DNA of 64,000 nucleotides from Candidatus Omnitrophota bacterium. Its GTDB lineage: Bacteria; Omnitrophota; Gorgyraeia; JAFGHF01. Shown here in pieces: positions 22,594 through 24,488 of the stretch. The first letter of the stretch is position 1. Every line of letters starts with the position of its first letter. A program made the translations under genes and the position numbers. The notes below the pieces were generated by a model, which made no database searches, was not told where the DNA came from, and saw nothing but the letters and a program-made list of their open reading frames with translations. The stretch covers positions 628,211 to 692,210 of the forward strand of contig CP070837.1 in NCBI GenBank assembly GCA_020341815.1. The letters are read 5' to 3'.

Positions 22594-23904
22594 TTATTTT
22601 TTATCTTTAGTTAATAAGTCTGCATAAATTTCTTTAAAATGTTCAGCTTTTTTAAAATAGACTTCTTTGCTATAGATTTGTTGGTATATTTCCAAAAAAC
22701 CATCTTGTAATTCTTGGGCTGACATACGCTTTGGCGAAAAGGTAATATTACACATAGAATAATCACTCCAATTATAAGACAATATCCTTTTTTCTTCTTC
22801 TAATCTTCTTCTTAATCGGGTTCCAGGCAAAGGCGTTAAAATTGTAACCTGAGCTGCATATAGATGATTATTGATTATAAAATCTGCCAATTTTTTAAAA
22901 ACTGATGTATCATCATTATCAAATCCAATTATGAATGCCCCCATGACACCTATGCCATAAGATTGGATCGTCTTTATAATATTTGGGTATTTTTCTATCT
23001 GTTTAATTTTCCAATTAGTTCTGTCTAAAGATTTCAAAGTTTTTCCTGATAAAGTCTCAAAACCAATAAAAAGAAGCGTGCATCCACTTTGCCTAAGTAA
23101 CTCTAAAAAACTTTCATTATCTGCTATTGAAACATCTGTCTGGGCAAACCATCTGACGTTTAAAGGTAACAATCTCTTTACTAATGCCATAGAATATCTT
23201 TGATTAGTAAACATATTATCATCAGCAAAGCCTATTTGAATGCTTCTCTTAAAAATATTTTTTATATAAGAAACCTCTTTTATTACTTGATCTATAGTCT
23301 TATGTCTATATTTGAAACCATATACATTTGAAGCAGCACAAAATTCGCAATCACGTGGACAGCCCCTGCTAGCTTGGATCCAAGCCATCTTGTAATTTCC
23401 AGGTTTAACTATATCATACCTAGGGATAGGAGATTTGGTTAAGTCCACAGGGTTCGTTGACCTATAAAATGGTTGAAGATTATTATTTAAGAAATCTTCT
23501 ATAAACCTCGGCCAGGTTTCCTCTCCCTCACCAACTATTACGCTATCAGCGTGCTGTTTGGCTTCTTCCGGCAATACCGTAGCGTGAATCCCGCCAATAA
23601 CGACCTTTACGCCTCTTTTTCTAAACTCATCAGCAATTTGATAGGCACGGGTAGCCTGTTGAGTTATTGCTGATATAGCAACTAAATTATAATTTTTATT
23701 GAAATCTATATTCTCAAAATTCTCATCTATGAATTTGATATCAAAAGAGTTAGGAGTTAGAGCTGCTATAATTAACAATCCTGAATTAAAGCCAGACCAA
23801 TAGTATCTATAATTGACAAATTGTTCAGAATCGTTCAAAAAATCTTTAAATTTAGGATCGGCACTTAAAAAAGTGCCTTTGGGGCTTATTAACGCAATCT
23901 TCAT
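22594..23904 (-). CDS. B12-binding radical SAM protein
   Basis: N-terminal cobalamin-binding Rossmann region. CxxxCxxC at SRGCPRDCEFCAAS. Confidence 0.85.
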   Translation of the reverse strand: MKIALISPKGTFLSADPKFKDFLNDSEQFVNYRYYWSGFNSGLLIIAALTPNSFDIKFIDENFENIDFNKNYNLVAISAITQQATRAYQIADEFRKRGVKVVIGGIHATVLPEEAKQHADSVIVGEGEETWPRFIEDFLNNNLQPFYRSTNPVDLTKSPIPRYDIVKPGNYKMAWIQASRGCPRDCEFCAASNVYGFKYRHKTIDQVIKEVSYIKNIFKRSIQIGFADDNMFTNQRYSMALVKRLLPLNVRWFAQTDVSIADNESFLELLRQSGCTLLFIGFETLSGKTLKSLDRTNWKIKQIEKYPNIIKTIQSYGIGVMGAFIIGFDNDDTSVFKKLADFIINNHLYAAQVTILTPLPGTRLRRRLEEEKRILSYNWSDYSMCNITFSPKRMSAQELQDGFLEIYQQIYSKEVYFKKAEHFKEIYADLLTKDKK

Positions 23905-24488
23905 TTCTTATCCAAATATTCCTTTATCAACTCGATCATATCTCCCACTGTAACTACATCAAACATCTTTGCCTCATCTGTCTTGATGTTATACGTCTTT
24001 TCAACGGCAACCAATATCTCCATTGCCATTAAGGAGTCTATCCCTAAGTCGTCGCGAATTGAGGTATTCTCATCAAACTCTGACTCATCCATTCTGGCAA
24101 TCTCGGCAAGTACCGATTTTATCCCATGCTTAAGCTCCATCTCTGCTATGTAAGAAGCTAACTCTCCTTTTGCATCATCGGCTATTTTCGCAAATCTAAC
24201 TCCTACCATAACCCCTTTATCATCTGTCCAAACAGGCTCGGCCTCTGCTTTTATCTTAAGGGAGCATCCAGGCAGATTCATTGACAGGCCCATCTTACAT
24301 TCTTTAGAGCGTAAGTTACTCAATATTACCTCTTCAGGTGCTTCCAACTCAAGTAAGACGCCGCCTTTTCCGATATTCTTACTCACTGCCCTGTATTCTT
24401 TTGACAATAACGAAAGCTCAAGAGGCAAAGCTTTAACTATACGCACATGTTTCCTTCTATCGGAACCCGCAAAACTTTCTTTTTTCAT
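23901..24488 (-). CDS. PilZ-like domain fused to an acyl carrier protein (phosphopantetheine attachment DSL motif)
   Basis: RKHVR ... NIGKGGV resembles PilZ RxxxR / (D/N)xSxxG. The C-terminus DDLGIDSLMAMEILVAVEKT is a canonical ACP. ATG at 24488 has AAGGAGG 9 nt upstream; the track's longer GTG form is probably spurious. Confidence 0.6.
   Translation of the reverse strand: MKKESFAGSDRRKHVRIVKALPLELSLLSKEYRAVSKNIGKGGVLLELEAPEEVILSNLRSKECKMGLSMNLPGCSLKIKAEAEPVWTDDKGVMVGVRFAKIADDAKGELASYIAEMELKHGIKSVLAEIARMDESEFDENTSIRDDLGIDSLMAMEILVAVEKTYNIKTDEAKMFDVVTVGDMIELIKEYLDKK

Follow-up and report, generated by a model that had tools for sequence, protein, structure and literature searches.

A 64,000-nucleotide stretch of contig CP070837.1 from Candidatus Omnitrophota bacterium (assembly GCA_020341815.1), termed here the window, encodes a protein in which a PilZ domain is followed by an acyl carrier protein (ACP) domain. 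The architecture of this protein, hereafter PilZ-ACP, is almost certainly genuine. The fusion recurs in several phyla, the motifs of both domains are conserved, and the gene belongs to a cluster that is syntenic with HD-GYP genes and in which PilZ domains also occur on other pathway proteins. On balance, we lean towards the view that PilZ-ACP is a carrier under the control of cyclic di-GMP (c-di-GMP), operating in a pathway that comprises an AMP-forming ligase and a radical S-adenosylmethionine (SAM) enzyme.

Architecture of the PilZ-ACP fusion

The original prediction had placed a PilZ-like domain and an acyl carrier in one protein, and HMMER comparison with the two Pfam models bore this out, as both matches exceed the gathering cut-offs. 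The gene and its elements are as follows.

23901..24488, minus strand: PilZ-ACP fusion gene, 195 amino acids (open reading frame translation; Pfam PilZ and PP-binding above gathering cut-offs)
24486-24488, minus strand: start codon ATG
24498-24504, minus strand: Shine-Dalgarno sequence AAGGAGG with a 9-nt spacer to the ATG (direct sequence reading)
24144..24461, minus strand: PilZ domain, residues 10-115 (Pfam PF07238)
24441..24455, minus strand: c-di-GMP motif 1, R12-K-H-V-R16 (RxxxR), both Arg invariant in the family alignments
24360..24377, minus strand: variant of c-di-GMP motif 2, N38-I-G-K-G-G43, that is [D/N]hSxxG (h, hydrophobic) with Ser replaced by Gly
24096..24179, minus strand: predicted continuous helix, residues 104-131, leading from the PilZ C-terminal helix into ACP helix I (AlphaFold2, AF2, and DSSP; predicted local distance difference test score, pLDDT, of the block 71-79)
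23925..24122, minus strand: acyl carrier (PP-binding) domain, residues 123-188 (Pfam PF00550)
24033..24035, minus strand: codon of Ser152, predicted phosphopantetheine attachment site (DSL), from conservation

The listing of open reading frames (ORFs) also contains an alternative form of 222 amino acids at this locus. Because the Shine-Dalgarno sequence lies at 24498-24504 and the stop codon of the gene located 5′ of PilZ-ACP at 24515-24517, the 195-amino-acid form is likely the product. In this numbering, RKHVR corresponds to residues 12-16, NIGKGGV to residues 38-44, and DDLGIDSLMAMEILV, containing Ser152, to residues 146-160; the carrier string can likewise be written D146-DLGIDSLMAMEILV, again with Ser152 inside. 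A protein from an NCBI metagenome-assembled genome (MAG) of Candidatus Omnitrophota bacterium, named 'PilZ domain-containing protein', is identical to PilZ-ACP.

When PilZ-ACP was compared with PF07238 by Pfam hmmscan, the match reached 31.7 bits (E=2e-7; gathering cut-off 22.5) and covered profile positions 1-101 of 102. Conservation was followed in two alignments, one of 24 PilZ-ACP homologues that are 32-44% identical to the window protein, and one of 14 N-domains including those of other fusion types. Residues R12, R16, I39, G42, G43, W87, G96 and F99 are among the invariant positions of the former. The latter contains R12, R16, P22, I39, G43, W87, G96, F99 and L110 as invariant positions, with G42 kept in at least 90% of the sequences. 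According to bioRxiv 10.1101/814665, ligand-binding PilZ domains are marked by a pattern of RxxxR, [D/N]hSxxG and, close to the last strand, a conserved Phe. As RxxxR, [D/N]h.xxG and the Phe are invariant or retained, the PilZ-ACP family matches this pattern except for the Ser. Of the 24 PilZ-ACP proteins, at least 90% have Gly at the corresponding position, Gly40; the homologues P0002 and P0149 have Ser there, and P0035 has Cys. Thus, both strings that had been called degenerate PilZ motifs are present, but the term fits only one of them: RxxxR is canonical, whereas motif 2 deviates by the Ser-to-Gly exchange and, judged from the alignments, is a family-specific variant.

The N-domain alone, compared with PDB sequences by phmmer, retrieved one weak spurious match, Dad3, and the family profile was needed to retrieve MotI. 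In this profile 'DIGxGG' is aligned with the canonical 'NISAGG' of MotI. The AF2 model of the N-domain, of low to moderate confidence (pLDDT 60.9), shows beta-barrel strands between residues 23 and 102 and thereafter a C-terminal helix starting at residue 104, in keeping with the six-stranded barrel and terminal helix of PilZ domains. Structure prediction had been suggested as a check on the PilZ assignment, and its outcome speaks in favour of it: in a Foldseek search nearly all best PDB matches of the model were c-di-GMP-binding PilZ domains, with query template modelling (TM) scores of 0.5-0.62. The top matches comprise PA4608/MapZ, MotI, the PilZ domain of BcsA, Alg44, MrkH, PlzA and YcgR.

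The altered motif 2 bears on an alternative, in which the PilZ domain does not bind a ligand and serves as a docking or scaffold module that tethers the carrier to the kinase, to the HD-GYP protein or to a pathway enzyme. Non-binding PilZ adaptors exist, for example the eponymous PilZ, and the replacement of the motif 2 Ser by Gly in at least 90% of the family would be in line with such a role. Moreover, large clusters of non-canonical, non-binding PilZ proteins are known (bioRxiv 10.1101/2020.02.11.943704), and the versions of the cluster with a stand-alone ACP, described below, function without PilZ. However, non-binding PilZ domains typically lack RxxxR and motif 2 altogether (bioRxiv 10.1101/2020.02.11.943704, 10.1101/814665), whereas both Arg, the D/N, the hydrophobic residue and both Gly are kept here across approximately 30% identity. 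In addition, Ser is kept in two members, and the cluster is regularly flanked by a cyclic-dinucleotide phosphodiesterase. Weighing these points, we regard a docking function without ligand binding as doubtful, albeit as an option to be taken seriously.

The C-terminal ACP named in the original prediction was confirmed by a score of 53.9 bits against PF00550 (E=2.1e-14; gathering cut-off 20.8; residues 123-188; Pfam hmmscan), and D151-S152-L153, which includes the carrier serine, is invariant in all 24 aligned homologues. NCBIfam ACP models match PilZ-ACP as well, all of them below their equivalog cut-offs (37-42 bits as opposed to 70-84 for TIGR00517 and PRK00982). Since every AcpP-type score lies far below cut-off, the carrier domain is, on these scores, a specialised ACP and not the housekeeping AcpP. 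It falls into a distinct ACP family with the signature IARxD....E...IR(D/E)xLGxDSLxAxE. When the C-terminal half of the AF2 model was compared with solved ACPs by Foldseek, target TM-scores of 0.80-0.92 and root-mean-square deviations of 1.1-1.9 A were obtained. The full-length model, calculated on the 24-sequence alignment, is of moderate confidence (pLDDT 68.6; predicted TM-score, pTM, 0.54) and comprises, in this order, strands between residues 23 and 94, a long helix from 104 to 131, and the ACP helices, with helix II beginning at Ser152. The four-helix fold and the DSL Ser at the start of helix II are common to PilZ-ACP and type II ACPs such as AcpP and the anammox amxACP, from which PilZ-ACP differs as a distinct carrier family with an N-terminal PilZ domain.

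Recurrence of the fusion within a conserved gene cluster

Relatives were searched for exhaustively by phmmer among 1.84 billion representatives, and with a profile in a collection of 5.8 billion proteins. The phmmer matches spanning both domains were P0002, P0004, P0025, P0035 and the fragment P0069. The profile search yielded 38 clusters, almost all of which are annotated PF07238+PF00550. The fusion is carried by at least 38 clusters and, besides these, by P0002 and P0004. The fusion clusters stem from independent NCBI, JGI, ENA and Logan assemblies and from several phyla; the automatic database names of the proteins are 'acyl carrier protein', 'phosphopantetheine-binding protein' or 'PilZ domain-containing protein'. 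In a word-indexed protein search, which did not enumerate other architectures, the single sequence retrieved only itself, and the N-domain profile retrieved only PilZ-ACP proteins.

The window sequence derives from a MAG, and a fusion in such a sequence could be an artefact caused by a frameshift, by mis-assembly or by two genes being read as one. This explanation is ruled out by the recurrence in at least 38 clusters, together with the uninterrupted ORF and its own strong Shine-Dalgarno sequence, and the probability of an artefact is practically nil.

The proposal that the fusion is undescribed stood the test of the literature: a full-text search found no publication on a PilZ-ACP fusion or on a ligase/ACP/radical-SAM/HD-GYP cluster. 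Likewise, none was found on Omnitrophota with c-di-GMP, on HD-GYP with radical SAM and ACP, or on B12 radical SAM with ACP and ligase/reductase. Two large surveys of PilZ architectures, one of them bioRxiv 10.1101/2020.02.11.943704, mention no ACP or PP-binding partner. However, dozens of metagenomic proteins carry the fusion, so it is not unique. The fusion of PilZ to biosynthetic machinery is already an established theme; PilZ-ACP is a new PilZ output architecture inside an undescribed, widespread and conserved cluster.

In the window, the minus strand carries all genes of this cluster in close succession, and several start and stop codons overlap. The biosynthetic and signalling genes are listed below.

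25656..25841, minus strand: small DNA-binding protein HTH_17, 61 amino acids (Pfam HTH_17, 64.7 bits)
24515..25531, minus strand: HgdB-like subunit, 2-hydroxyacyl-coenzyme A (CoA) dehydratase / double-cubane reductase family (Pfam HGD-D, 278.6 bits)
22594..23904, minus strand: B12-binding radical SAM enzyme with a DUF4070 tail (Pfam B12-binding, Radical_SAM, DUF4070)
21056..22585, minus strand: AMP-forming acyl ligase, presumed acyl-ACP loader (Pfam AMP-binding, 233 bits, and AMP-binding_C)
19846..21090, minus strand: HgdA-like subunit (Pfam HGD-D, 247 bits)
19064..19849, minus strand: ATP-dependent activase, BcrAD_BadFG / CoA_E_activ (Pfam, 211 bits; NCBIfam TIGR00241, 278 bits, cut-off 125)
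16926..19064, minus strand: HisKA_7TM-GAF histidine kinase (Pfam)
15482..16900, minus strand: NtrC-type sigma-54 activator, REC-AAA-HTH_8 (Pfam; also in locus L008)
15294..15309, minus strand: perfect sigma-54 promoter consensus TGGCACGAAAGTTGCT, the sole zero-mismatch match in 64 kb
14281..15282, minus strand: REC-HD-GYP response regulator, predicted cyclic dinucleotide phosphodiesterase (Pfam HD_5, 136.9 bits; HD; Response_reg, 101.6 bits)

The ATG of the radical-SAM gene overlaps the stop codon TGA of PilZ-ACP (ATGA), an arrangement by which the two genes are predicted to be translationally coupled. The HD-GYP gene that had been noted at the same locus is indeed present, and its catalytic motifs LLHDIGK and HHERYDGKGYP (HHExxDGxGYP) are intact.

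For comparison, we used the neighbourhoods of the fusion homologues and a scan of one genome per species, and searched the resulting 76 loci by tblastn with the cluster proteins of the window. Counts of components refer to the 65 loci that hold the carrier family of the PilZ-ACP type. This family is nearly always found inside the same type of cluster, which is spread over MAGs of Omnitrophota, Spirochaetota, Nitrospirae, Desulfobacterota, Clostridia and Pseudomonadota. An AMP-ligase homologue is adjacent to the carrier in 57 of the 65 loci. The B12 radical-SAM homologue is encoded in 40, at 43-59% identity across phyla, and in 45 the pathway genes precede one for a homologous kinase. Less frequent are a thioester-reductase-type NAD_binding_4 protein (21/65), a FadL/Toluene_X outer-membrane channel (19/65) and a preceding HTH_17 gene (9/65, Omnitrophota-type). 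The thioester reductase scores 208 bits against Pfam NAD_binding_4 and 175 bits against TIGR01746, as compared with a cut-off of 213. A gene with an HD-GYP domain is located within 10 kb downstream in 26 of the 32 non-redundant loci that extend at least 9 kb beyond the carrier (25 by filter, plus L051, whose gene is split). The remaining 6 are of the long-kinase type, and their flanks end within two-component genes.

Three versions of the cluster can be distinguished. Version (a), present in MAGs of Omnitrophota and 'Planctomycetia', consists of HTH_17, FadL, a stand-alone ACP of approximately 90 amino acids, ligase, reductase and radical-SAM enzyme, followed by the signalling genes for a seven-transmembrane (7TM)-GAF kinase, a REC protein and a REC-GAF-HD-GYP protein in this order. 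Version (b), the Spirochaetota type, comprises 33 loci including one Clostridia MAG and encodes a PilZ-PilZ-methyltransferase, ligase, stand-alone ACP, radical-SAM enzyme and hybrid kinase. The first of these, a protein of approximately 1200 amino acids (L046:4875-8495; L031-L065), is always encoded directly upstream of the AMP-ligase/ACP/B12 radical-SAM triad. It carries two canonical N-terminal PilZ domains (90.4 bits; RRHIR, NLSRTG), a middle part of approximately 500 amino acids without a Pfam match, and a C-terminal SAM methyltransferase. The signalling arm of version (b) is combined in one protein of 841 amino acids (L046:11599-14124), in which an N-terminal region of approximately 200 amino acids is followed by HisKA, HATPase, REC and HD-GYP. 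Version (c), the PilZ-ACP type, is represented by the window and by loci of Nitrospirae, Pseudomonadota, 'Deltaproteobacteria' and unclassified MAGs.

Fusions of the same PilZ subfamily to a 4HBT_2 thioesterase (P0016, L076:143-1042) and to a SAM methyltransferase (P0149, L077:248-1495) occur as well. By eye and without scoring, the gene next downstream of either has a multi-pass hydrophobic start that resembles the N-terminus of the kinase. The C-terminal fragment of the ORF upstream of P0149 looks, again by eye only, like a GMC-type oxidoreductase. PilZ thus resides on the ACP, the thioesterase or the methyltransferase depending on the lineage. It migrates among the proteins of one pathway, next to which a cyclic-dinucleotide phosphodiesterase is regularly encoded, and such a 'Rosetta-stone' pattern provides good sequence evidence that c-di-GMP and the pathway are functionally coupled. 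The original prediction had proposed a coupling to the HD-GYP regulator from the single locus. The downstream HD-GYP genes in 26 of 32 loci and the recurrence of PilZ on other cluster proteins strengthen it, and PilZ migration together with HD-GYP synteny is the strongest support for this idea.

The HTH_17 protein can be assigned to the module because P0002 (L008:10001-10960) is a triple fusion HTH_17-PilZ-ACP and P0019 a partial HTH_17 fused to ACP; these fusions indicate that it is a functional member. They also bear on a further alternative, namely that PilZ-ACP is mainly a regulator whose acylation state and c-di-GMP occupancy are read by the HTH_17 partner to control transcription, PilZ-ACP and the 61-amino-acid protein together forming a split c-di-GMP- and acyl-responsive transcription factor. 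Apart from the occurrence of HTH_17, PilZ and ACP in one polypeptide in P0002 and of the HTH_17 fragment with ACP in P0019, the HTH_17 gene stands at the head of the cluster here and in the 9 Omnitrophota-type loci, and PilZ C-terminal helices of some receptors make protein-DNA or protein-protein contacts (bioRxiv 10.1101/814665). Against this, the conserved adjacency and translational coupling to ligase and radical-SAM genes, or to the reductase gene elsewhere, is what one expects of a working carrier, and the Spirochaetota-type clusters contain no HTH_17. A mainly regulatory role is in our judgement distinctly unlikely.

The window appears to differ from the related loci in its release step. 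Its cluster contains neither the thioester reductase nor FadL, both of which are common elsewhere. Conversely, no homologues of the HgdA-like, HgdB-like and activase proteins were detected in the 76 related loci, and a metagenome scan with the HgdB-like protein returned no relatives. Apparently, HgdAB/activase, an ATP-driven radical enzyme working at low potential, takes the place of the thioester-reductase release step in this genome.

A possible gate on the carrier and its relation to known systems

In the following scheme, c-di-GMP binding by PilZ-ACP, the substrate, the product, and how and in which direction gating would work are inferred from sequence. Within an adenylation-carrier pathway of the dissociated type, the carrier would represent the 'T' component. 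The adjacent AMP-ligase would load a carboxylic, probably fatty, acid on the phosphopantetheine of Ser152, the B12 radical-SAM enzyme would modify the tethered acyl chain, and HgdAB/activase, or the thioester reductase elsewhere, would process or release it. The position of HgdAB/activase genes amid an ACP pathway suggests a carrier-bound rather than a CoA-bound substrate. Upon a membrane or lipid signal, the kinase/NtrC/HD-GYP arm would lower the level of c-di-GMP. Binding of c-di-GMP at RxxxR and the motif 2 turn could shift the C-terminal helix of PilZ and, with it, the carrier, and this shift would change how well partner enzymes reach helix II and Ser152, thereby switching carrier availability. 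A read-out via the C-terminal helix has been proposed by Galperin and Chou for PilZ domains in general (bioRxiv 10.1101/814665).

Several observations weigh against c-di-GMP control of the carrier. The motif 2 Ser, one of four classical contact residues, is replaced by Gly in PilZ-ACP and most of its family, and we know of no c-di-GMP binder with this exchange. In MapZ, this Ser contacts c-di-GMP directly (bioRxiv 10.1101/814665). The continuous helix that links PilZ and ACP in the model is tentative because AF2 confidence is moderate (pLDDT 68.6 for the full-length protein and 60.9 for the N-domain), and the length of the linker differs among homologues. No PilZ was found within 10 kb in the Omnitrophota relatives with a stand-alone ACP; since these relatives have no PilZ nearby, PilZ control is not obligatory for the pathway. 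Moreover, a search of the 64 kb gave no diguanylate cyclase motif. Finally, the nearest solved relative of the HD-GYP protein is V-cGAP3 (5z7c, 2e-40), a phosphodiesterase specific for cyclic GMP-AMP (cGAMP), followed by the c-di-GMP phosphodiesterase PmGH (4mcw, 5e-37).

The last point raises the question of whether the ligand of the module is another cyclic dinucleotide, such as 3′3′-cGAMP. The best match of the HD-GYP protein among PDB sequences, V-cGAP3, ranks slightly above PmGH, and the altered motif 2 could shift specificity. However, the gap between the two matches is small and RxxxR is the c-di-GMP motif; we know of no characterised ligand-binding PilZ domain with a ligand other than c-di-GMP. 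A ligand other than c-di-GMP is thus very unlikely.

With the canonical PilZ receptors MapZ/PA4608, MotI/YpfA, Alg44 and the C-terminus of BcsA, PilZ-ACP shares RxxxR, the [D/N]h.xxG turn, the Phe and a barrel followed by a helix. As in PilZ-ACP, the PilZ domain of BcsA and of Alg44 resides on a biosynthetic component. The canonical receptors differ from PilZ-ACP in the motif 2 Ser, which is Gly here, and in the output partner, which is an ACP here.

The Rpf system of Xanthomonas, which governs the diffusible signal factor (DSF), consists of the acyl ligase RpfB, the synthase RpfF, the sensor kinase RpfC and the REC-HD-GYP protein RpfG, and PilZ proteins act downstream. Its likeness to the cluster, a functional analogy only, lies in the combination of fatty-acid activation, a membrane sensor kinase and a REC-HD-GYP protein. 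Because a Pfam scan of eleven cluster proteins revealed no RpfF-type crotonase, the PilZ-ACP cluster is not a member of the Rpf/DSF family. In contrast to Rpf/DSF, the window cluster uses an ACP and a B12 radical-SAM enzyme (with a reductase or HgdAB), and the sensor of its kinase is of the 7TM-GAF type.

By analogy with Rpf, the c-di-GMP-controlled carrier could be extended to a feedback circuit built on a lipid signal, with the carrier itself as c-di-GMP effector, an extension that we consider fairly unlikely. A hydrophobic acid would enter via FadL, be loaded on the carrier and be remodelled by the B12 radical-SAM enzyme. The thioester reductase would then release the product, HgdAB taking over the processing in this genome. 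Upon sensing the product or its precursor, the 7TM-GAF kinase would activate the REC-HD-GYP protein and thereby lower c-di-GMP, acting here also through NtrC and the sigma-54 promoter. PilZ on the carrier, the thioesterase or the methyltransferase would close the loop by switching synthesis on or off.

Two other groups of enzymes resemble parts of the cluster. Related loci encode ligase, carrier and thioester reductase side by side, reminiscent of the adenylation, carrier and reductase (A-T-R) order of carboxylic acid reductases and enzymes like nonribosomal peptide synthetases (NRPS). In contrast to both, the cluster proteins are separate and a B12 radical-SAM enzyme is added, and the window has HgdAB and activase instead of the reductase. 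The two HGD-D subunits and the BcrAD_BadFG activase of the window are shared with 2-hydroxyacyl-CoA dehydratase, benzoyl-CoA reductase and double-cubane systems. In contrast to these systems, the HGD-D subunits stay below all equivalog cut-offs, and the genes alternate with those of an ACP pathway.

Exopolysaccharide synthases, flagellar motors, pili, transcription factors and proteolysis are known targets of c-di-GMP effectors; a description of control by c-di-GMP at an acyl carrier protein was not found in the literature. Should PilZ-ACP bind c-di-GMP, the shuttle at the centre of a thiotemplated pathway would be gated by a second messenger; such a regulatory design is compact and may be reusable in engineering. 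Should the feedback circuit hold, the carrier itself would be a second-messenger effector and a new class of c-di-GMP output. The cluster links lipid-type radical chemistry with c-di-GMP turnover in poorly studied anaerobes and is thus of interest beyond one gene. With three small soluble proteins and one ligand, the module is experimentally approachable.

Transcription signals and further genes of the window

The perfect sigma-54 consensus lies between a terminator-like hairpin (15318-15335, minus strand) and the HD-GYP gene, downstream of the NtrC-type gene, and a scan of the 64 kb revealed no perfect sigma-54 promoter upstream of the biosynthetic genes. The position of this site suggests a path from the kinase via NtrC and sigma-54 to HD-GYP expression, that is, transcription of the HD-GYP gene driven by the putative kinase/NtrC pair. 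Directly downstream of the HD-GYP gene a giant gene follows, which is perhaps under sigma-54 drive, too.

5104-13953, minus strand: FG-GAP repeat protein, 2949 amino acids, with many FG-GAP repeats, beta-propeller, immunoglobulin-like and glucodextranase-B domains

Its product may act as an adhesin on the cell surface and may share this sigma-54 and c-di-GMP control.

A sigma-70-like promoter (TTGACA, 17 nt, TAAAGT, with an upstream TG) precedes the HTH_17 gene at 25896-25924 (minus strand), and a hairpin with a T-run follows its stop codon at about 25610-25650 (minus strand). Because of its own promoter-like element and the following hairpin and T-run, HTH_17 probably forms a transcription unit separate from the biosynthetic operon.

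The HgdB-like protein has a conserved N-terminus (..TWFCSYTP..) that is encoded 5′ of the first ATG, GTG or TTG, and the frame runs to approximately 25591. Upstream in this frame, a TAA is followed by AAGGAG and, 8 nt further on, by an ATA codon. Such an arrangement would be explained by a non-canonical start or by a sequencing error, and the true protein is probably about 20 amino acids longer than the listed ORF. Against the NCBIfam model double_cubane it scored 206.6 bits, under the cut-off. As for the B12 radical-SAM enzyme, the named families (TIGR04072 ladderane-type, HpnJ, BchE and others) were all far below their cut-offs, and no NCBIfam equivalog was reached.

In L008, three small genes for four-helix-bundle proteins resembling 23S_rRNA_IVP / bAvd (11003-11413, 12656-13006 and 18152-18550) are interspersed among the cluster genes. 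In the window, two small overlapping ORFs at 26014-26560 (minus strand) resemble a RelE/ParE-type toxin and a Phd/YefM-type antitoxin by sequence alone; beside them, at 26586-27107 (minus strand), is an ORF of 173 amino acids with a nucleotidyltransferase-like motif, judged in the same way.

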